IMG/VR virus record: IMGVR_UViG_2693429557_000018
Source: a virus
Lineage: Duplodnaviria; Heunggongvirae; Uroviricota; Caudoviricetes
Reading direction: 5' to 3' (one strand)
DNA: 8,225 bases
The first letter of the stretch is position 1. Each line of letters begins with the position of its first letter. The translations under genes and the position numbers were made by a program. Below are positions 1-8,225 of the stretch, in pieces. The notes under the pieces are model-generated. The model made no database searches. It was not told the DNA's origin and saw only the letters and a list, made by a program, of their open reading frames with translations.

Positions 1-65
1 GGTAGTGTCCGCTATTGCCAGTACACCTCATACTGAGGGTACTACGTGATAAGAAAGTAGTTACC

Positions 66-1025
66 ATGAAGATTATCGATAACCTCACCTTTGAACGGGC
101 TAATGAGAAGTTATCGCGGAATGGTATAGCTAATCGTATCCGTAAGGACATTACCATTGCTCAGGATGATTACATTACTAACCTCTTCCCGAAGATGCTG
201 AAATGCGGTCACTGTGGGGGCAATATTGCAATTCACTATAATCATGTACGAACTAAGTATGTTATTTGTCGTAACAGGGAAGAAAAGAAGATCTGCGATG
301 CTAAATCTATCCAGTACATGAGAATTGAAAAGAACATTCTACAGCTTGTCAAAAATGTAGACTTCAATAAATTGATGATGGAAGGTAAGTCGGATTCAGA
401 TTCATTGCTTGCATCATTGCGAGAAGAGTTAAGTACTTTACAGAAAGAGGCAGAAACCTATCAGGTTAAAATTAATGAACGTAAGGCAGCAGGTAAGAAA
501 GCCTCGTTACCATTAATGACGGGTTTAACTGAGGTACAGGATAGAATTGAAGAAATAGAATCTGAGATATTAAATTCAAAGAACATCAAAGAAATCCCTG
601 TATTTGATTTCGATATTAATAAAGTACTTGATCCATTGAATGTCGAGTTACGTGCAAAGTTACGGAAAGAAGTAAGATTAGTACTGAAATCTGTTAAGTA
701 CTGGGTTTTTGAAAAGCGTATATTTGTACAGTTGGAATACTTCAATGATGTCCTATCCCATACGCTTGTGATTGATAACAAGCGGGGCGGGGGTGAAGTA
801 CTACATGAGATCGTAATCTCTGAAACAAGCGGCGAGCGTGTCTACACTGTCAATGAAGAGGGCAAAACCGTTTTCATTGCCTCCGTTACATCTGGTACTG
901 ATATGTGGTCGCTTGCCATTAGCCGTACCAAAATACTTGATGATGTTGGATTGTATCTTAATCTTCTCAAGCGTGAAAAATTTGAGATCATTGTTAATGA
1001 AGATATGATTGATTGGATGGATTAA
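66..1025 (+). CDS. Large serine recombinase, C-terminal zinc-ribbon plus coiled-coil portion; N-terminal catalytic domain not encoded in frame in this window (split, frameshifted or truncated gene)
   Basis: Translation has the recombinase-type zinc-ribbon motif (FPKMLKCGHCGG ... YVICRN ... KKICD, i.e. CxxC...C...C) followed by a long coiled-coil-like stretch (LREELSTLQKEAETYQVKINERK...), the C-terminal module of large serine recombinases. First ATG is at 66 (a TTG at 15 has no RBS). There is an in-frame TAG at 3-5 and stops in the other two forward frames at 34-36 and 47-49, so no upstream reading frame continues into this ORF. Confidence 0.6.
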   Translation: MKIIDNLTFERANEKLSRNGIANRIRKDITIAQDDYITNLFPKMLKCGHCGGNIAIHYNHVRTKYVICRNREEKKICDAKSIQYMRIEKNILQLVKNVDFNKLMMEGKSDSDSLLASLREELSTLQKEAETYQVKINERKAAGKKASLPLMTGLTEVQDRIEEIESEILNSKNIKEIPVFDFDINKVLDPLNVELRAKLRKEVRLVLKSVKYWVFEKRIFVQLEYFNDVLSHTLVIDNKRGGGEVLHEIVISETSGERVYTVNEEGKTVFIASVTSGTDMWSLAISRTKILDDVGLYLNLLKREKFEIIVNEDMIDWMD

Positions 1026-1140
1026 AAGCTAATGAGAATTTATGGTCTTGTAGAATGAATTATGCGAGTTAATATTTGAACAATATATCTACGATGTCGA
1101 AATCTAACGGCATTGTAGATAGAGCAATAAAAGAGGGATT

Positions 1141-1230
1141 ATGAATTTTGGATATAACTACGCACCCGATGGGTTTAAGATTTCCGTGCAAAATACAGCA
1201 AATCATTTATATCAGCGTGTGTTAGAATAG
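1141..1230 (+). CDS. Small ORF (29 aa, MNFGYNYAPDGFKISVQNTANHLYQRVLE) of unknown function
   Basis: ATG at 1141 is preceded by a strong Shine-Dalgarno-like AAGAGGG with about 5 nt spacing; stop TAG at 1228-1230. Too short for the supplied ORF track. No similarity recognised. Confidence 0.2.
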   Translation: MNFGYNYAPDGFKISVQNTANHLYQRVLE

Positions 1231-1320
1231 TCAAGGGTAAAATTAACTTTTTTGACTTTTCAACGTTAAACCAGTACCATAGCGTCATTCACTAACGAAT
1301 AGGAGCGATGAAACCATGAG

Positions 1321-1722
1321 ATGAATTCTAAAGAGAGGATTGCCAAAATGCGTAAGAAAGAAAATAAAGCAAAAAAAGAAAAATTCCGTCAATTTTTCCC
1401 TGAGAATTATGATATTGGGATCTCATTGAATGAAGAGAATCAATTAAGGCTTTTTTCAAAGCGGAATGATTCTCAAGATGAGAGCTTATGCAAGTACGAA
1501 TTTTCCAACAAAATTAAAGTTCAGTACATTTTTTTGCCGTATTCTTCTGAAATTCAAGTTATAACAGATGAGTTTCCGCTAACGGAGGCAGGCTGTCAGG
1601 AGTGTACTCAAGCTTTCAAACATCCAATATCAATGGAACTAATTGAAGAGATAAAAGAAGCAAAATGTTCAGTTACTGGACTTGTCATTTATTCGAAACC
1701 TATACTAAAACTTATTAGCTAA
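1321..1722 (+). CDS. Hypothetical protein (133 aa) with a lysine-rich N-terminus
   Basis: Intact ORF on the same strand as its neighbours; AGGAG at 1301-1305 upstream of ATG 1321 (an alternative ATG at 1348 has GAGAGGA upstream). No recognisable motif. Confidence 0.5.
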   Translation: MNSKERIAKMRKKENKAKKEKFRQFFPENYDIGISLNEENQLRLFSKRNDSQDESLCKYEFSNKIKVQYIFLPYSSEIQVITDEFPLTEAGCQECTQAFKHPISMELIEEIKEAKCSVTGLVIYSKPILKLIS

Positions 1723-1798
1723 CACATCCAAATTGTTACGTTTTAAGTACTCCCTCACTAAATACTATAAAGTTGAATGTGAATGGGGGTACTTCAAA

Positions 1799-1972
1799 AT
1801 GGAATGGTTTACTAAATTACTTTACGAGATAGTAGGCTTTGTACTTTACATCTTTCTGATAATCCCAATATATATAGTGCTCATGTTTTTATCTATGATT
1901 TTAGTACTATTGCTTTCCCCATTAAAAATCAAATCGATAAATAAATACGTAGTAAGAAAAATGAAACGCTAA
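1799..1972 (+). CDS. Small hydrophobic (membrane) protein, about 57 aa
   Basis: The ORF track gives 1733..1972, but 1733 is a TTG with no RBS; the first ATG is at 1799 (MEWFTKLLYEIVGFVLYIFLIIPIYIVLMFLSMILVLLLSPLK...), preceded by a G-rich stretch. The product is almost entirely one or two predicted transmembrane helices with a basic C-terminus. Confidence 0.35.
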   Translation: MEWFTKLLYEIVGFVLYIFLIIPIYIVLMFLSMILVLLLSPLKIKSINKYVVRKMKR

Positions 1973-2082
1973 AAGTTTTGGTGCTATACTAATAGTATCA
2001 GAACGATAATGCGTTTTGCCTTCCGCTCCAGCTTTGAACATAAATAATATAGCGACAATAAATTTCCTTTTTAATTAAGATT

Positions 2083-2110
2083 GCCTCTCTTGCGAGAGAG
2101 GTATCTTTTT
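2083..2110 (+). terminator. Candidate rho-independent terminator
   Basis: Hairpin with 7-bp stem CCTCTCT / AGAGAGG (2084-2090 / 2095-2101) and 4-nt loop TGCG, followed immediately by TATCTTTTT; lies between the 1799..1972 ORF and the next gene. Confidence 0.5.
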
Positions 2111-2160
2111 AATTTGGATTTATAAATACAGTATACAAATACACCTATAAGGATATAGAA

Positions 2161-2346
2161 ATGAAAAAAGTAACTTTAAAGGAACGCAAACATCATGTAG
2201 TAACCGCACGTCTTAATGACGATCAAGTACTTGTACTTAACCAGCTAATTAGTAGTGGGAAGGTACAGAAAGATTCATTATCAGCCTGTGTTCAGTACTT
2301 AATTAATCAGTACATGATTTTACAGGGCGGTGGTAATGAAGAATGA
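2161..2346 (+). CDS. Small DNA-binding protein, ribbon-helix-helix-like (CopG/Arc/MobC-type fold predicted)
   Basis: 61-aa ORF with good RBS (AAGGA, 7-nt spacing). The pattern of a basic N-terminus, a short beta-strand-like segment (HHVVTARL) and two helices (DDQVLVLNQLI; SLSACVQYLINQY) is typical of RHH regulators and antitoxins. Assignment is from sequence pattern only. Confidence 0.5.
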   Translation: MKKVTLKERKHHVVTARLNDDQVLVLNQLISSGKVQKDSLSACVQYLINQYMILQGGGNEE

Positions 2347-2638
2347 CTTTGATTTAGTACAATATTTTGATGATTACACAATAGTAGGGGATATGGATTA
2401 TCACTATTTCTATTGTGTGAAGTATCAGGAAGGTTCATTAGAAGCACATTATGAACGAATTGGTGATCCAGAAGTATTAGGTACTATTACATGGAATGGA
2501 AATTACCTAATCGACGGATTACCAATGGTAATGTTTGTACTGGCTGCTGAAGATGAACATAAGGAATGTTTAAACCGTTTGCTAATCGTATGTGAGAAGG
2601 CGAGGGATGAATATAGGCTAAATGCTACTGGCCTCTAA
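2336..2638 (+). CDS. Hypothetical strongly acidic protein (about 100 aa), translationally coupled to the upstream RHH-like gene
   Basis: ATG at 2336 overlaps the end of the upstream ORF (stop 2344-2346) in a different frame; a GTG at 2330 is an alternative start. By hand count about 19 Asp/Glu versus 8 Lys/Arg. No recognisable motif. Confidence 0.5.
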   Translation: MKNDFDLVQYFDDYTIVGDMDYHYFYCVKYQEGSLEAHYERIGDPEVLGTITWNGNYLIDGLPMVMFVLAAEDEHKECLNRLLIVCEKARDEYRLNATGL

Positions 2639-2692
2639 GTAGTAGCAGACGCGATCACATGGAGTGACGCGATAACAACAAGGACGTTTGAT

Positions 2693-3247
2693 ATGAACCC
2701 TAAAATCACTTGGAGATTAATTCCAAATTCAAAACATTACTACGTATCTGAAAATGGCGATGTTTACAATGATAAAACAAAACAGTATATAGCTACGAAA
2801 AACCCATCTAATGGATACAAAAAAGTTTCTATTAATGGCAAATCACTATATGTACATGTTTTGGTTTGTACTTTATTCAATGGTGCTAAACCCATTGGAG
2901 GAAGATACACTGTAGATCATATCGACCGCGATAAAATGAATAACAAAGCAAAAAATTTACGTTGGGTAACTCAGAAGGTTAATAATTCCAATAGAAAGCA
3001 TAAAGGTACTCGTACTCAAAAGCTTACTCTAAAGCAATGGTTAATGATTGTTGGAGAGTACCTTAAAGGACAATTATCTCAATATGCAATCACTAAATGG
3101 TTTTTAAATCAAACTGGTATTAATATTTGCCCTCAGAATATAGGTAAGTTATTCAAAGGTACTACCTATTCAAAATGGTACACAACATATCTTACGAATA
3201 AGCAAAGACAAAGAATACAAAGCCTAACCATTCAACGTAAACCATAA
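2693..3247 (+). CDS. HNH homing endonuclease (NUMOD4-like N-terminus plus HNH_3-type nuclease motif), free-standing
   Basis: N-terminal WRLIPNSKHYYVSENGDVYN (NUMOD4-like), central GYKKVSINGK...YVHVLVC...TVDHIDRDKMNNKAKNLRWVTQKVN (HNH of phage homing endonucleases), basic C-terminal tail; RBS AAGGA 8 nt upstream of ATG 2693. Confidence 0.8.
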   Translation: MNPKITWRLIPNSKHYYVSENGDVYNDKTKQYIATKNPSNGYKKVSINGKSLYVHVLVCTLFNGAKPIGGRYTVDHIDRDKMNNKAKNLRWVTQKVNNSNRKHKGTRTQKLTLKQWLMIVGEYLKGQLSQYAITKWFLNQTGINICPQNIGKLFKGTTYSKWYTTYLTNKQRQRIQSLTIQRKP

Positions 3248-3250
3248 AAA

Positions 3251-3274
3251 ATGCCAGTATTCCAGTACTGGCAT
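3251..3274 (+). terminator. Perfect 9-bp inverted repeat hairpin directly after the homing endonuclease gene; weak terminator candidate
   Basis: ATGCCAGTA (3251-3259), loop TTCCAG, TACTGGCAT (3266-3274), 4 nt after the stop codon; followed by CTATTC, which is not a clean U-tract. Confidence 0.3.
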
Positions 3275-3368
3275 CTATTCAAAACTCAATGGCAATGAAG
3301 CCAAACTTATTAAATGGCCTGTAATCACTACGGGTCACGATTAATTAATTTATACAGGATTATTTATC

Positions 3369-3830
3369 ATGGCAAAAACCTATTCAACTTTTGATAACAG
3401 AAACATAAAAGCACTAATTAGCCAGTACAAGCTATATAAAGATATCCCATGCGAAGACATCAAGAACATCATGAAGGACTCAGTAGCTAAACTTAAAGTG
3501 AGAGATAAGATTAGTGTATATGATGTGTTTGCAGTATTGAGTAATGAAGATGAATTACGGAATGATTTACTATTCAATACTATCAATGCTATTAAAGTAC
3601 AACAGAATAAGAAACAAGTAAAAGAACGTATGATCAGGTACTATGGGGCAGCGATCACGGATGCAGCAAAACGAATAGAGCAGTATATGTTGGCACACCC
3701 AAACGCACTGCCAGCACCAGTATATGGACAAAGAACACTAACATATAAAGAGTTTGGTAAACTATTGGAACTACAAAAACAAGGTGACTTTATTGATGAC
3801 ATGATCGAGTACTTAAAGGGCTTGCGTTAA
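3369..3830 (+). CDS. Hypothetical protein (153 aa)
   Basis: Intact ORF with ATG at 3369 and AGGA-containing upstream region; no recognisable motif. Confidence 0.55.
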   Translation: MAKTYSTFDNRNIKALISQYKLYKDIPCEDIKNIMKDSVAKLKVRDKISVYDVFAVLSNEDELRNDLLFNTINAIKVQQNKKQVKERMIRYYGAAITDAAKRIEQYMLAHPNALPAPVYGQRTLTYKEFGKLLELQKQGDFIDDMIEYLKGLR

Positions 3831-3840
3831 TTGTAACTTA

Positions 3841-3923
3841 TTACGGCATATTACGGCATGGATGTATGCCGTAATACGGCAAAAAAAGCCCCTGAAACCC
3901 GCTATTTACCATCAATACGGCAA
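3841..3923. repeat. Cluster of TACGGCA-core repeats (iteron-like): two direct TTACGGCAT copies, one inverted copy forming a 9-bp hairpin, and two AATACGGCAA copies
   Basis: TTACGGCAT at 3841-3849 and 3851-3859; inverted ATGCCGTAA at 3866-3874 (loop GGATGT); AATACGGCAA at 3873-3882 and 3914-3923; A7 run at 3881-3887. Read directly from the sequence. Confidence 0.6.
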
Positions 3924-4293
3924 CTAAGTATAGAGATACGAAATCCATTCCATTTCATTCCATGTATTTCTTTCTCTATCAGTATTCCAAGAAACTGTGA
4001 CTTGCGTCACGAATACTACTCGTCGTGAACTCCTCGTAGTATTGGTTAGTAACGTTGCGTTTTTCTCGCCAGTACTCGAAAACCCGCAAGGCGTTACTAC
4101 TCGCTTTGCTCGATAGATGTTAGTACAGCAAATGAAGTACCTAAAGTGAATTGGTAAGTACGACATGCCCCGCCAGTTCCACAACTCTCGCTCTGGTCAT
4201 TTCCACTACTATGATGCTATTGGATAGCTACATAAAGTACTGGATCAAGTAGGCATTTTTTGTGTACAAAGAGGGAATTAAGAGAGGGATACC

Positions 4294-5037
4294 ATGAACA
4301 GAAAACAATTCATCCAGTCGCATGGTGCTACTTGTAGTAACTGGACTTGGAGTTGGTCATTTGTGAACCACGACAAGAAAATGGTTATCTTTGGTGCATG
4401 GGATGTACAAAAAGAGCAAGAAAGATCAGTCATTCTGAGGGAGCGGTGGAAAACCAAAGTTGTGGAGGGAAAGGAAAGAAAAAATCTTGGATATATTCAA
4501 GCTATTGAACACATTCAATTGATAGCTGAAGGTTATGAGCTTTACACGTTTGATATGGAGCAGGGACGAAACGATGAGAATAGAGATGTAGCTGTTATCA
4601 AACGGTTCACTCCAAAACTTGAAAAACGTTACCTTCGGAAAGAAGGAACAGTTTGGTATGCAGACTTTTTACCTAATCCATTTCCAGATGAAATTACCTC
4701 ACCTGAAAACTACGCTGAGGGTGCAAAAAAGCAAGTTACAGTAAACTCCTACGAGCGTGATCCAAAAGCACGACAGGCTTGTATTGACCATCATGGTACT
4801 TCCTGCGGGTGTTGTGAGTTTAACTTTGAGAAAGTCTATGGTGAACACGCCAAGGGCTTTATACACGTTCATCATATCAAACCGCTACACACAGTAGGCG
4901 AGGATTACGAGGTAAATCCAATTACTGATATGGTTCCACTTTGTCCAAACTGTCACGCAATGGTACATCGCGGTAACGAAGTATTAAGTGTCGAAAGTTT
5001 AAAAGCACTGTTGTTTAAAGACAGCAATAAAATTTGA
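4294..5037 (+). CDS. HNH-family nuclease with an uncharacterised ~160-aa N-terminal domain (candidate restriction/defence nuclease)
   Basis: C-terminal HNH signature CIDHHGTSCGCCEF ... HVHHIKPL ... NPITDMVPLCPNCHAMVH (Cys-rich zinc site, His-His, Asn, terminal His); strong RBS AGAGAGGG 5 nt upstream of ATG 4294. The N-terminal region (QSHGATCSNWTWSWSFVNHDKKMVIFGAWD...) is not recognisable to me. Confidence 0.8.
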   Translation: MNRKQFIQSHGATCSNWTWSWSFVNHDKKMVIFGAWDVQKEQERSVILRERWKTKVVEGKERKNLGYIQAIEHIQLIAEGYELYTFDMEQGRNDENRDVAVIKRFTPKLEKRYLRKEGTVWYADFLPNPFPDEITSPENYAEGAKKQVTVNSYERDPKARQACIDHHGTSCGCCEFNFEKVYGEHAKGFIHVHHIKPLHTVGEDYEVNPITDMVPLCPNCHAMVHRGNEVLSVESLKALLFKDSNKI

Positions 5038-5050
5038 ATTTATTTTAGAC

Positions 5051-5079
5051 TTGATACGACATACTTGAAAAGTTATGAA
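5051..5079 (+). promoter_or_regulatory. Candidate sigma70-type promoter for the 5120..5593 gene
   Basis: TTGATA (5051-5056), 17-nt spacer, TATGAA (5074-5079), about 40 nt upstream of ATG 5120. Pattern match only. Confidence 0.25.
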
Positions 5080-5119
5080 TACAATATGCTTTAAATTAGA
5101 CATGTAAGTTGAGAGAAAA

Positions 5120-5593
5120 ATGAGCATAACAACAATAGCAGCTACATATAAAGATGTGTTAACTATTGCTTTTTCGGCGTTGTCATTTATTATTGCATGT
5201 ACTTCCTTATACTTCTCCGGTAGGGCAGCATGGCATGATAGATCAAGGCTAAAAATAACAGCTGACCTCGTCTACGAGTCTTTTGATGAGGAACCTTATA
5301 AAATCGAGGTGATAGTGATCAATGTTGGTAGGCGTGATGCAGTTTTGGAAGGGATGCTTTGCCATTATGAAAAAGGCATTAGGAGCCATTCATCTCCAAA
5401 AGAGAGCATTGTTATTAAAGAAAAGCAAAGAAAAAAATTTGAATTGGTAAGCTCAGACTTAGTCACGATAGATAATGAATGTGATATTTGTCATTTAGAA
5501 GATATAACTATTTTAGATGTGGAGGGGAATGAACATAAAATCCCTAACTCTCACAGACTCATTGCATTACTTAAGCAAGATAAAAAGACTTAA
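5120..5593 (+). CDS. Membrane-anchored hypothetical protein (157 aa; one N-terminal transmembrane helix)
   Basis: Intact ORF 82 nt downstream of the HNH nuclease gene; N-terminal hydrophobic segment (LTIAFSALSFIIACTSLYF), then a soluble domain with a CDICH motif; GAGAG upstream of the ATG. Confidence 0.55.
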   Translation: MSITTIAATYKDVLTIAFSALSFIIACTSLYFSGRAAWHDRSRLKITADLVYESFDEEPYKIEVIVINVGRRDAVLEGMLCHYEKGIRSHSSPKESIVIKEKQRKKFELVSSDLVTIDNECDICHLEDITILDVEGNEHKIPNSHRLIALLKQDKKT

Positions 5594-5632
5594 GAATAAT
5601 ATTTTTTGGAATGTAAGGTAAATGTTAGATGC

Positions 5633-5673
5633 CACTATAGATTGAGGGTTAGAACTACTAACCCACTATAGGG
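5633..5673 (+). promoter_or_regulatory. Two copies of a T7-class phage promoter core (CACTATAG / CACTATAGGG) flanking a 7-bp inverted repeat
   Basis: CACTATAG at 5633-5640 and CACTATAGGG at 5664-5673 (identical to T7 promoter positions -7 to +3); between them GGGTTAG (5646-5652) / CTAACCC (5658-5664) form an inverted repeat with loop AACTA. The -17 to -8 region does not match T7 itself. Confidence 0.2.
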
Positions 5674-5849
5674 TTTACGAGATGATAAGAATGGAATTTA
5701 ACACCTACGATGGTGATATATATTACTTCCTCTATTTATATAGGAGGTACGAAAGGGGGAGTACTTTAATGAAGACCTTATAAATCTTAATGTTGAGATG
5801 TTAGTTATAGCGGTGAGGATACCCCACCGTCTATTGGGAGTTGTGGACT

Positions 5850-6518
5850 CTAATTAGAGAAAACGAATAAGTTATTCATGTCCTTTTTCAAGGTTGCATG
5901 TGCTTCTATTAAACTATCAAATGTATCTACTAATAACTTTCCATAGCTGACATTGTAATGATATCTATCATGAATGTCATTTATATCAAAACTTATCGCT
6001 TCCCTCAATGTTCCTAAAGCAATTTGATTACTGAAGAAATAATTATTGAATATAGCTTCATCTTTTGGCGATACTTTCCAAAAGGTAAGTGATTGCAATT
6101 CGCTTTTTAATGAGGCTAACTTAATGTTTAATAGATCGATAACTTCTCGTTCAGTTTTAACTAAATGTGCGAAATTTTTTGGTTCTATATCTGGTTCAGT
6201 ATTGTTAAGGTTGCATATATTTTCATATGTTTTCAACATCTCCAACGAAAAAAGATCGCAATTAGTCCAGAACTTAGTAACTTGATTTAAAGCATTTTCC
6301 TTTATTTTAGTTTGAAACCAATTTTTAGCGTTCCATGCTGCATATAGGGCTGCTCCAGCCATAATGAGATTGGCAATAGAACTAACCCAGTCACTAACCG
6401 ATCCCCACTCGAAACCTTCAGAACCAACAAAGAGTGATTTTATTAGTACTAAAATTACAACAACCAGTAATACTGCTACGGTCGATAAAAGAACGATATT
6501 TAATTTTCTACAATCCAT
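5850..6518 (-). CDS. Hypothetical membrane protein (222 aa; two N-terminal transmembrane segments, helical C-terminal domain)
   Basis: Intact minus-strand ORF, AT-rich; N-terminus LLSTVAVLLVVVILVLI plus a second hydrophobic segment VSSIANLIMAGAALYAAW. Convergent with the 5120..5593 gene. No recognisable catalytic motif. Confidence 0.55.
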   Translation of the reverse strand: MDCRKLNIVLLSTVAVLLVVVILVLIKSLFVGSEGFEWGSVSDWVSSIANLIMAGAALYAAWNAKNWFQTKIKENALNQVTKFWTNCDLFSLEMLKTYENICNLNNTEPDIEPKNFAHLVKTEREVIDLLNIKLASLKSELQSLTFWKVSPKDEAIFNNYFFSNQIALGTLREAISFDINDIHDRYHYNVSYGKLLVDTFDSLIEAHATLKKDMNNLFVFSN

Positions 6519-6592
6519 CGAAAGTAGTTCCTGAACGCATTAAAGGGGCAAATACTTTACCATCCGAAACACAATCAAGTACACTACCCGTT

Positions 6593-6645
6593 CACGTACT
6601 GCTCACATGTTGGGTTTGTTATTTTGTTGGGGTGAGCAGTACGTG
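6593..6645. repeat. Perfect 14-bp inverted repeat with a 25-nt loop containing a direct GTTGGG repeat
   Basis: CACGTACTGCTCAC (6593-6606) and GTGAGCAGTACGTG (6632-6645) are exact reverse complements; loop ATGTTGGGTTTGTTATTTTGTTGGG. Lies 6 nt beyond the stop of the 6651..6962 gene, at the AT-rich to GC-balanced transition. No adjacent U-tract on either strand. Confidence 0.7.
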
Positions 6646-6650
6646 TATCC

Positions 6651-6962
6651 TCAGAAGGGTAGTTCCCCCTGATCACAGAACCAATCACCTTCTTCACTGC
6701 TTTGATTCATCCGGTACTCAGCAGATAGATATGCTAACCCATCAATAACACTTATTAGTGGTGTTTCACAGGTAAGTACAAAACAATCTCTCTCTATAGT
6801 ACCTAACCAGTATTCCCTGTACTGATTCTGGAAGAATACCCTATCCCCATAATGAAATTCTGTTAGTGCAGATCCCCAATAACACACGGTTGCCCAGCGA
6901 CCGTTATGTGAGAACTTCTGAACCCCTCGCGTAATGGATGGATCATAGCCGTCTTTGCTCAT
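6651..6962 (-). CDS. Hypothetical protein (103 aa), probably SOS (LexA) regulated
   Basis: Minus-strand ORF with strong RBS (GAGGAGGG, about 6 nt spacing) and a near-consensus LexA box 22 nt upstream of the ATG; visibly higher GC than the upstream cargo. No recognisable motif in the product. Confidence 0.6.
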   Translation of the reverse strand: MSKDGYDPSITRGVQKFSHNGRWATVCYWGSALTEFHYGDRVFFQNQYREYWLGTIERDCFVLTCETPLISVIDGLAYLSAEYRMNQSSEEGDWFCDQGELPF

Positions 6963-6983
6963 TTGTTACCCTCCTCTATGTAT

Positions 6984-7003
6984 TACTGTATATATGTACA
7001 GTA
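6984..7003. promoter_or_regulatory. LexA (SOS) box, gammaproteobacterial type
   Basis: TACTGTATATATGTACAGTA = CTGT-N8-ACAG, 19 of 20 matches to the E. coli consensus TACTGTATATATATACAGTA; sits in the promoter region of the 6651..6962 minus-strand gene and in the divergent intergenic region. Confidence 0.7.
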
Positions 7004-7072
7004 TTGCAGTCAGTTTCCCAAAAATCCAGCACCCCTTTGTTTACCACTTTGAATGATTAATTCTATTGTAAT

Positions 7073-7089
7073 GATCAATAAAATTGATC
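7073..7089. promoter_or_regulatory. GATC-containing palindromic operator-like site (GATCAAT-aaa-ATTGATC), with a third related half-site downstream
   Basis: Perfect 7-bp inverted repeat with 3-bp spacer at 7073-7089; AATGATCAAT is repeated at 7070-7079 and 7113-7122; three GATC sites within about 47 bp, upstream of the 7155..7706 gene. Confidence 0.3.
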
Positions 7090-7154
7090 TATTTAATTGC
7101 CAATGTTTTAAAAATGATCAATTATCAATAACTTAAAGCGTAACGAGCAAAGTT

Positions 7155-7706
7155 ATGAACATTGATAATTGGGCAATACCGATAACAAGTTTGGGTGGTC
7201 AGTTGCTGGGGGTTGAGTTGGTCAGCCATGTAGAACGCGAGGGAATCAGGCAGATCGGCCTATGGGAAGAAGAAGTACTTCATGGGCAACTAATGCTTAT
7301 TGAAAGCAAGGCGGCATGGTTCAGGGATAACGGTTTGTATTGTGTGATTACTACTGGCCGTGGTGAACCATACGAGTACTTACCATTCCTTCGGCAGATG
7401 ACAAGGGATATGAAAGTACATAACCAGCAGTGGCTTGATGATCTCGGTGTACATGGTGGTTCTGCTATTCCTCTGGTTACAGGTGATTTCGAGGTTGCCC
7501 GATTAAATAGAAGGTACACAGAAGAGAACATTGACCGTCTGATCTTTCCAGTACTCATAAAAAGCATTCGCCAGTACTGCGAGAAGGTGATCGTACCCGT
7601 CAGAGATAAAACGTATTACCCAATTCTCAGAGAGGCCGGTGTATGGGCGGTACAGGGAGAGTTCAGGCCAATGCGTTTTGAGCAATGTGAAAAATTAATA
7701 GGATAA
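7155..7706 (+). CDS. Degenerate EAL-like domain protein (183 aa), probably catalytically inactive
   Basis: Motifs resembling the EAL fold in the right order: GVELVSH in place of the EAL motif, LDDLGVHGGS resembling DDFGTGYSS, GVWAVQGEFRPMRF resembling the QG-x-x-F-x-P C-terminal motif. The domain is shorter than a canonical EAL domain and key residues look substituted. Pattern match by eye only. Confidence 0.5.
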   Translation: MNIDNWAIPITSLGGQLLGVELVSHVEREGIRQIGLWEEEVLHGQLMLIESKAAWFRDNGLYCVITTGRGEPYEYLPFLRQMTRDMKVHNQQWLDDLGVHGGSAIPLVTGDFEVARLNRRYTEENIDRLIFPVLIKSIRQYCEKVIVPVRDKTYYPILREAGVWAVQGEFRPMRFEQCEKLIG

Positions 7707-7711
7707 CAATA

Positions 7712-8074
7712 ATGAAAAAATTACTAATTGGGTTACTGATTGCCCTTAGTACTGGATGTACTACTACGCACAGCTTCATGGATAAAGCTTACGTTGGCTA
7801 TGTAGATGACAAGGCCGTAGTACTGTTTGATGCAGGAACACGTAATGGGGTGAAGTACTACCGTCCTCAGTTCCAGAGTGATTGCGGTCGCATCTATAAC
7901 AAGATCTATCATGATGACAATACAAGTACTGGATGCCTCATACGAGATTCCCGCATTGCTGAACTACATCCCTATAGAGAGCATGTAAGTAAGGTAGTAC
8001 CACATCAGACCGATAGTGTTCACGATTGGTTAGAAGGGGTCAATTCACCATCCCATATCCTCGACAATCTATAG
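7712..8074 (+). CDS. Probable lipoprotein (120 aa)
   Basis: Signal peptide MKKLLIGLLIALSTGC with lipobox-like LSTGC (Cys at +1); starts 5 nt after the EAL-like gene stop with AGGAT RBS, so probably in the same operon. Confidence 0.65.
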   Translation: MKKLLIGLLIALSTGCTTTHSFMDKAYVGYVDDKAVVLFDAGTRNGVKYYRPQFQSDCGRIYNKIYHDDNTSTGCLIRDSRIAELHPYREHVSKVVPHQTDSVHDWLEGVNSPSHILDNL

Positions 8075-8081
8075 GGTACGT

Positions 8082-8225
8082 ATGGGAAAGGTAATGGTGA
8101 TTTTGTTAGTACTGGCTGGGGTACTCTTCAACATTGCAGGTGAGGATGCACCCCAGCCACAGTACACGGACAATGAGTGGATTTGCCCCTATATTTCCAG
8201 ACATCTGTTATCACTTAACCCATTA
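8082..8225 (+). CDS. 3'-truncated ORF with a hydrophobic N-terminus (signal peptide or membrane anchor)
   Basis: ATG at 8082 (second in-frame ATG at 8094) starts 7 nt after the lipoprotein stop; translation MGKVMVILLVLAGVLFNIAGEDAPQPQYTDNEWICPYISRHLLSLNPL runs open to the window end. Confidence 0.4.
   Translation, partial: MGKVMVILLVLAGVLFNIAGEDAPQPQYTDNEWICPYISRHLLSLNPL

Follow-up and report, generated by a model that had tools for sequence, protein, structure and literature searches.

The 8,225-nt stretch of DNA analyzed here (the window) derives from a Shigella sonnei prophage whose insertion adjoins yeaG. Its HNH nuclease and the 153-aa protein encoded upstream were identified as exact matches in hundreds of S. 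sonnei assemblies, including that of strain 53G (HE616528.1). From left to right, the prophage comprises a gene for a large serine recombinase, small orphan ORFs, a gene for an HNH_3 homing-type endonuclease, and orf153, followed by a 463-nt gap, the nuclease gene HNH247, orf157, two minus-strand genes, and a rightward block that ends with the small and large terminase and portal genes. The features in and around the gap are compiled in Table 1.

Table 1. Features of the gap between orf153 and HNH247 and of the two flanking genes, in window coordinates.
Feature	Position	Strand	Remarks
orf153 (153 aa)	3369..3830	+	Divergent unannotated all-helical family; candidate sequence-specific DNA-binding protein
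Proximal repeat cluster	3839..3881		Four TACGGCA copies; kept in close relatives, other motifs there in other subfamilies
A7 tract	3881..3887		A6/A7 length polymorphism among S. sonnei isolates
Distal TACGGCA copy	3916..3922	+	147 nt upstream of the hairpin anchor; followed by -10-like TATAGA (3929-3934)
CATTC/CATTT pentanucleotide run	3943..3965		5-nt insertion polymorphism in some S. sonnei isolates
Small hairpin GTGAC-ttgc-GTCAC	3997..4010	+	Stem kept; loop varies (TTGC/TGC/TGGC)
P1 hairpin AATACTAC / GTAGTATT	4012..4043	+	8-bp stem (4012-4019 / 4036-4043); 16-nt loop with two CUCG
P2 central long hairpin	4048..4098	+	AGTAACG-TTGCG-TTTTTCTCG / CGAAAA-CGCAA-(GG)-CGTTACT
Conserved 3' tail of the core	4099..4167	+	ACTCGCTTTGCTCGATAG ... 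AGTAC ... AAAGTGAATTGGTAAGTACGACATG; blastn conservation ends at ~4167
CCCCGCCAGTTCC segment	4168..4193	+	Junction zone; resembles, weakly and by eye, the ACCCGCC(A)GTCCCGCC module that recurs in relatives
HNH-cassette upstream region	4194..4293	+	Outside the conserved element; same ~100 nt before HNH247 homologues
HNH nuclease HNH247 (247 aa)	4294..5037	+	PF01844, E 3e-6; PADLOC mREase_IV, E 5e-7

The gap has three parts, namely a set of repeats (3839-3922), a structured element (~3997-4167), and DNA of the HNH cassette (~4190-4293). As the original prediction had noted, it holds no credible ORF: the candidates of 56 aa (plus strand) and 86 aa (minus strand) are not shared by homologues, which differ from one another by 1- and 2-nt indels in the conserved core. 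The region is therefore not coding, and a pseudogene was likewise rejected, no reading frame being common to the homologues. The original prediction had also entertained an attachment site or the end of an insertion. However, the host-prophage junction is the interval between yeaG and the integrase gene, and the gap lies ~4.8 kb inside the element in intact copies. Since the region is internal to the integrated prophage, it cannot be attP or attL.

Prophage context and distribution of the element

The window is cut by insertion sequences, and both of its ends are mobile-element DNA. The right end (8178-8225) is an IS2 terminus. At the left end, positions 1-36 have a 97% match to Stx2a phages and cut short the serine recombinase gene, which encodes 644 aa where copies are intact. 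Directly upstream of orf153, here and in many relatives, is a gene for an HNH_3/NUMOD4 homing-type endonuclease (2693-3247). Screening of 50,697 records of isolated phages yielded nothing similar by DNA (near and distant searches) or by protein, and a tblastn search of isolated phages with an orf153 relative gave no match. The element family is known only from prophages and metagenomic contigs. No recognizable genes for replication, repressor, or recombination functions were identified in the ~11-kb early region (window 1-8225; locus L006, 10000-16800), where ORFs other than those for the integrase, the two HNH proteins, and the terminase lack a Pfam or functional PHROG match.

Two further properties of the prophage were observed. 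A near-consensus LexA box (TACTGTATATATGTACAGTA, 6984-7003) is located 22 nt upstream of the start of the minus-strand gene orf103 (6651-6962), in the divergent gap that precedes orf183 (7155-7706). This suggests that orf103 may be an SOS-controlled gene, such as one for an antirepressor; its sole match is to PHROG 2100, of unknown function. In addition, GTAC, and especially AGTACT, is strongly over-represented throughout the prophage family (scored in the whole window, in L002 4798-20744, and in L160, L176, L151, L156, L173, L185, and L188). The window contains 81 copies of GTAC (28 expected) and 24 of AGTACT (~2.7 expected), and the 53G prophage contains 37 of AGTACT (5.1 expected), with none in the host flank and no excess in HK022. 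These motifs are found both inside and outside coding DNA, in every codon phase. The window has neither CTAG nor GCGC.

Homologous loci were collected in several ways. A distant blastn search of 5,426 complete Escherichia coli genomes matched only window positions ~4040-4167, at 80-88% identity in 31 genomes. The matches always fell in unannotated DNA and in different integrative elements, located at thiM, at yeaG with a serine recombinase, or at ffs with a tyrosine integrase. More copies came from scans for the invariant motif TTCTCGC-N1-2-GTACTCGAAA; the first genome-wide scan returned mostly chance matches and was filtered with nhmmer. Look-ups of divergent upstream proteins added others. 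In total, 34 distinct versions of the hairpin region were collected, from hosts that include Enterobacter, Kluyvera, Mangrovibacter, and Kosakonia, with the rest from metagenomes. The element occurs in S. sonnei, E. coli, Enterobacter, Klebsiella, Kluyvera, Kosakonia, Yersinia, and others, and the module is also carried by small integrative islands. When islands with different integrases are compared, the core surpasses every neighboring protein in conservation.

These loci bear on the gene to which the element belongs. A plus-strand ORF of the orf153 family (153-198 aa) ends 230-320 nt upstream of the motif in every locus with enough upstream sequence. In contrast, the downstream gene varies: it may be HNH247 (in only some loci), another ORF, or, often, a convergent gene for a membrane protein at a distance of just 136 nt. 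The ~100 nt at 4194-4293 precede HNH247 after different versions of the element (L199, L200, L208, and L174) and are absent where other cargo is present. Since this segment recurs with HNH247 whichever version precedes it, it is the HNH cassette's own DNA. The element is thus tied to orf153, with which it is syntenic, while the nuclease is cargo, so the association with the HNH gene that was originally proposed does not hold. Moreover, a downstream gene that varies and is convergent in many loci indicates that the element is not the leader of one particular gene. HNH247 with its upstream region, often together with orf157 (window 4194-5593), behaves as a mobile cargo cassette, to which different versions of the element are connected through one common junction, with the ATG 231-240 nt after the hairpin anchor. 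PADLOC scores the nuclease as type IV methyl-directed restriction-like, and its N-terminal 140 aa have no family assignment.

Repeats and the orf153 protein family

Every repeat feature listed in the original prediction is present in the gap. Cores of TACGGCA are located at 3842(+), 3852(+), 3867(-), 3875(+), and 3916(+), such that five fall within 81 bp. The window as a whole contains six copies compared with 0.55 expected, a number reached in none of 200 shuffles, and the cluster with its one inverted core is thus non-random. The inverted pair extends to a perfect 12-nt inverted repeat, TATTACGGCATA (3839-3850) and TATGCCGTAATA (3865-3876), which forms a palindromic, operator-like site. GC content across the gap ranges from 0.32 to 0.50 (window mean, 0.37). 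No AT-rich segment was found in the window; AT-rich or phased T-tract spacers separate the two repeat sets in some relatives only.

Within S. sonnei, the gap varies only by the A6/A7 polymorphism, by the 5-nt insertion at 3943, and by a C>T change at 4005. The core at 4048-4167 was observed to be invariant among these isolates, in some of which IS1 replaces everything to its left. In close relatives, TACGGCA occurs at the same offsets from the stop codon of the upstream gene.

The orf153 family comprises 64 clusters, all from Enterobacterales and all annotated as "hypothetical." It is a single, very divergent family whose subfamilies share ~10-25% identity with one another. Many members have an AT-hook-like N-terminus (KKRGRK/KKRGRP, with KRGRK/RGRP in common), and the repeats of these members contain AATT. 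The predicted fold of the window's protein is all-helical (pLDDT 83.7), and comparison with the PDB and BFVD returned no informative neighbor. No DNA-binding fold was recognized among those sought (HTH and RHH), which counts against the interpretation that we favor below.

In divergent subfamilies TACGGCA is not kept, and what replaces it is informative. Ten or more protein subfamilies each have their own repeat of 7-11 nt in the same layout, including TACGGCA, AACCGTAAC (in the ffs-island type), ATTAGCCC (six copies), AATTAGTAC, GAATTAAGAC, AACTCTAC, CTTAATTCGGG, and CTTCGCA. In each case a cluster with an inverted pair directly follows the stop codon, and there is one distal copy. Among the 11 subfamily representatives that were tabulated, the copies are confined to positions -320 to -119 from the hairpin anchor, with the distal one at -119 to -147, and up to 20 kb of flanking DNA contains essentially no others. 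A search of the loci for a second operator region found none; additional copies of ATTAGCC in L162 are inside a coding region. In most subfamilies, TATAAT, TATATT, or CATAAT lies no more than a few bases after the distal copy; in the window, the hexamer after it is TATAGA.

Such co-variation of repeat and protein subfamily is the signature that would be expected of a cognate protein-site pair. Judged from the sequences, it suggests that the repeats are type-specific binding sites for the orf153-family protein. Where iterons or operators had been proposed, what stands is that the repeats behave like protein-binding sites that are replaced from one subfamily to the next in a fixed layout; which of the two they are is weighed below.

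Structure and strand of the conserved element

The structured element begins with the small hairpin at 3997-4010, which is the palindrome GTGAC-ttgc-GTCAC of the original prediction. It is limited to the window-type 5' domain, the S. sonnei C>T change falls in its loop, and a terminator scan calls it terminator-like on the minus strand. Upstream of P2, three sequence versions that are unrelated to each other were identified, and each forms a hairpin at the same place. In the commonest of these (type-II), pairing in an outer helix (P0) and an inner helix (P1) reaches 91.5%, compared with 34-37% when the partners are slid. One pair of P0 appears as G.U in 11 sequences, as G-C in two, and as A-U in two. 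Some A.C appositions occur in type-II P1, which counts against our favored interpretation. The window-type version of P1 has no covariation of its own.

The original prediction had listed TACTACTCG as direct copies at 4014-4022 and 4095-4103 with an inverted copy, CGTAGTATT, at 4035-4043. The copies and the 8-bp hairpin that they form are present. However, the exact direct repeat is not conserved; relatives carry TCTTCTCG at the second TACTACTCG site, and the part that recurs is CTCG.

The bulged stem that had been noted around 4054-4090 proved to be the inner part of the longer hairpin P2, which has compensatory changes. P2 comprises three stem segments, and its apical and internal loops are invariant (UUUUUCUCGC-N1-2-GUACUCGAAA; also UUUUUCUCGC..GUACUCGAAAA). 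Aligned with MAFFT, 20 sequences show pairing in 86% of cells, compared with 36-52% when slid, and eight pairs that change on both sides. In an alignment of 30 distinct sequences that was fitted to a covariance model, and hence leans towards the structure, 90.4% of cells pair (45-60% when slid) and 11 of the 18 pairs change on both sides; none of 500 shuffles reached any of these measures. The covariation that the original prediction had put forward as a check on homologous loci is thus present, and beats the controls. The covariance model, built from 16 canonical sequences, matches the window at 4047-4107 (85 bits, E 4e-19). It gives exactly one strong match per locus (E 1e-20 to 2e-2), and its other matches are weak and lie on the opposite strand at the same site.

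Downstream of P2, no supported helix was found in the conserved tail (4099-4167), and candidate third helices (TTTGCT/AGCAAA or AGTACT-AGTACT) were discarded when inspection by eye showed that they are not maintained across subfamilies. Many relatives have a downstream hairpin at which five different stems occur (GGCC, GGUAC/GUACC, GGCAC/GUGCC, GCCC/GGGC, and GGUC/GGCC). In several relatives (L136 880-1851, L183 4517-5381, and L030 2372-3415), the non-coding DNA after the orf153-family gene extends over 865-1044 nt, which is unusual for a phage. The additional modules of such long relatives are a covarying GGCC-type hairpin followed by CUAAAGU, UUCGUGAGUAACUACGCG, a GGGCUGUUNAAGCCC hairpin, and ACCCGCCAGUCCCGCC. 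Given gaps of ~600-1000 nt with recurring modules in relatives, the window may hold only a shortened version of a larger RNA.

Several observations bear on whether the element acts as RNA or DNA. The single-sequence folding energy is unremarkable (z of -1.35 on the plus strand and -1.24 on the minus strand), which counts against the interpretation favored here; the support for structure is therefore comparative rather than thermodynamic. Hairpin energies are alike on both strands, which also counts against it. In favor of the plus strand, wobble pairs differ between strands, with 25 G.U compared with nine A.C cells in P2; the G.U, G-C, and A-U series at the P0 pair points the same way, and the downstream hairpin of relatives has two U.G versions and no A.C. 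Likewise, CTCG occurs in six plus-strand copies within 4019-4112, where 0.12 are expected (P ~3e-9), and CGAG does not occur there; relatives keep a comparable set of YUCG motifs. With selection on the hairpins and strand asymmetry combined, a plus-strand RNA, read in the same direction as the orf153 operon, is the simplest explanation, and we favor the view that the element is such an RNA.

Known RNA families and expression signals were also sought. Rfam 15 gave no match across the whole window at permissive thresholds (E<=1), and in the loci of six relatives (51 kb) matched only the SRP RNA and a weak Thr leader, both of which lie elsewhere. A tRNA/tmRNA scan found none. No full sigma-70 promoter was found in the window, nor a consistent -35 in several subfamilies, and this counts against the favored interpretation. 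No intrinsic terminator is consistent across several subfamilies, and only the version in the ffs island has a terminator-like hairpin. A complementarity search of the loci found no conserved base-pairing target for the invariant loop. Both of these results likewise weigh against the favored interpretation. The apical loop (UCUCGCCAGUACUC, 4064-4077) has a perfect 14-nt complement in the serine recombinase mRNA of the S. sonnei prophage (L004 5413-5426), in the part of the integrase gene that is missing from the window. Other loci offer complements of at most 9 nt at non-equivalent places. This integrase match, which is not conserved in relatives, is probably due to chance, aided by the AGTACT excess. 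Resemblances to boxA, CRISPR repeats, and DnaA boxes were dropped as not conserved by eye. A full-text literature search, including sequence strings, found nothing relevant to the element.

A proposed two-part module of the upstream gene and its alternatives

Collectively, our results show non-random repeats that co-vary with the protein subfamily, hairpins with compensatory changes, and synteny with orf153 that is independent of the downstream gene. The interpretation that we tentatively prefer, at somewhat less than even confidence, is that a type-specific regulator and its operator array lie next to a conserved non-coding RNA. The gap would then be a two-part regulatory module that belongs to the upstream gene and not to the HNH gene. 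Positions 3839-3922 would form an array to which the orf153-family protein binds, the palindromic site being part of it, and the specificity of this protein would differ between related prophages as immunity types do. Positions ~3997-4167 would encode a multi-hairpin non-coding RNA read on the plus strand, whose invariant loops UUUUUCUCGC, GUACUCGAAAA, and CUCGCUUUGCUCG (repeated YUCG) may contact a partner common to all of these phages, whether supplied by the host or a conserved component of the phages themselves. Binding by the orf153 protein would control transcription into the RNA, either by acting on a weak promoter that lacks a -35 and adjoins the distal repeat, or by preventing transcription of the orf153 operon from reading through.

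The array resembles phage immunity modules, in which DNA-binding specificity and sites also co-vary between otherwise related phages, and in which a palindromic site and extra half-sites are flanked by sequence conserved across immunity types; here, too, palindromic and repeated operator-like sites are specific to the regulator type. In those modules the sites are placed between divergent promoters, whereas here they come downstream of the gene, and neither HTH or repressor homology nor a second operator region was found. As to a promoter that overlaps a site, the -10-like hexamer after the distal repeat in most subfamilies is a candidate element, but no promoter passed the scan. The predicted RNA, in turn, recalls the immunity RNAs of P4 (CI) and of P1, P7, and N15 (C4-type) and the put RNA of HK022, which are conserved hairpin RNAs in the control regions of temperate elements with loops that are invariant because they contact a fixed partner. 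It differs from P4 CI and C4 in having no Rfam C4 match and no conserved complementary targets such as P4 seqA and seqC, and from these RNAs and put in being larger and modular. An antisense RNA of the P4 CI/C4 type is not supported, given that the best loop complement is the 14-nt match confined to the S. sonnei integrase gene.

Whether the repeats are instead the iterons of a replication origin is the most substantial alternative, which we consider possible but unlikely. Here the orf153 protein would be a small type-specific initiator, and the hairpin region would serve host replication proteins either in the form of RNA (a primer or an activating transcript) or as a hairpin in the DNA. In favor of an origin are the short repeats of mixed orientation, which directly follow the co-varying gene and are unique to that place in each locus, and the conserved block that adjoins them. 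Further points in its favor are the phased T-tract (bent) or AT-rich spacers of several relatives, the presence of the module in small integrative islands, and the early region of the prophage family, which holds no recognizable replication gene. In the lambdoid origins (lambda, phi80, and 82) and in those of SaPIs and PICIs, type-specific short repeats likewise change together with the adjacent specificity protein and adjoin a block that is conserved across types, which in lambda includes a palindrome. The clustered repeats here are matched by co-variation to the adjacent protein that would bind them. In SaPIs, the repeats are immediately 3' of the initiator gene and in two sets; in lambda, the iterons are inside the O gene, are 18-19 bp long and regularly spaced, and flank a clear AT-rich segment. 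In contrast to lambda, the repeats in this family are 7-11 nt long, irregularly spaced, and partly palindromic, a combination that is more operator-like, and the window has no AT-rich unwinding region. Furthermore, the orf153 protein has no similarity to O, Rep, or winged-helix initiators, no DnaA-box-like sites are conserved (relatives do not retain the TTCCAC repeats of 4174-4210), and, unlike in the lambda and SaPI origins, the wobble asymmetry of the conserved block and its one-strand CUCG motifs point to RNA, although a primer RNA would be compatible with these. The regulator-and-RNA interpretation and an origin could both hold, were the RNA to prime or activate replication there.

A bolder proposal, which we regard as unlikely, is that the element forms the 5' core of a large, modular, and novel non-coding RNA, which would recruit a conserved host machine through its YUCG motifs and invariant loops. 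Such an RNA would be either the primer or activator of an RNA-dependent replication origin, with the orf153 protein as type-specific gatekeeper, or a novel ribozyme or protein-sequestering RNA. Individually, the parts are similar to known kinds, namely operators or iterons and phage regulatory RNAs; the RNA and protein families themselves are undescribed in the libraries searched.

A cis-acting leader that acts only on its own transcript, driving or insulating the expression of downstream cargo, appears distinctly improbable. It could operate through put-like processive antitermination, through processing or self-cleavage, or through 5'-UTR control. In its favor, cargo genes (the type IV restriction-like HNH gene and others) lie directly downstream in many loci, and the combination of covarying stems with invariant loops is characteristic of RNAs whose binding partner is fixed, for example RNA polymerase. 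The gene order is also that of the lambda Q-PR'/qut-6S RNA region (StxS in Stx phages), in which a regulator gene and a DNA site precede a short, conserved, non-coding leader transcript and a slot for cargo or morons such as stx. However, the element is fully conserved in many loci where the next gene is convergent and nothing downstream could be regulated, and the orf183-type operon has its own strong extended -10 promoter in relatives. A lambda Q/qut late leader is not supported, since the orf153 protein has no Q Pfam domain, no Q21-like fold, and no Q/AlpA homology, and no terminator follows the RNA except in the ffs-island type; the many repeats also differ from the one binding element of the Q system. 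The put RNA of HK022 consists of two hairpins just downstream of an early promoter and heads a long co-directional operon. The element is not so placed, and a put-type antiterminator is not supported, given the convergent genes and the absence of any covariance model match in the HK022 early region.

Finally, the absence of any dedicated function (a decayed gene, a recombination scar or attachment site, or repeats due to chance or slippage) is rejected as very improbable: part of the gap is indeed junction DNA that arrived with the HNH cassette (4190-4293), slippage polymorphisms occur at 3881-3887 and 3943, and the exact TACTACTCG repeat is not kept, but the core is more conserved than neighboring proteins across islands with different integrases, no control matches the compensatory changes, the repeats greatly exceed chance expectation, the indels and the lack of a shared ORF exclude coding, the region is internal to the prophage, and the 30 distinct variants from several genera are not recent copies of one sequence.

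The element is a marker for the control region in a group of Enterobacterales prophages and islands that is widespread yet uncharacterized and whose early genes are almost all orphans. A type-specific pair of protein and site, adjoining an RNA that exceeds every protein of the locus in conservation, would provide a direct experimental handle on how these elements switch or replicate. Defense-type cargo, of which the HNH nuclease is one example, collects in the downstream slot, so its expression may also be set by the module, and the RNA, if confirmed, would add a family to Rfam.
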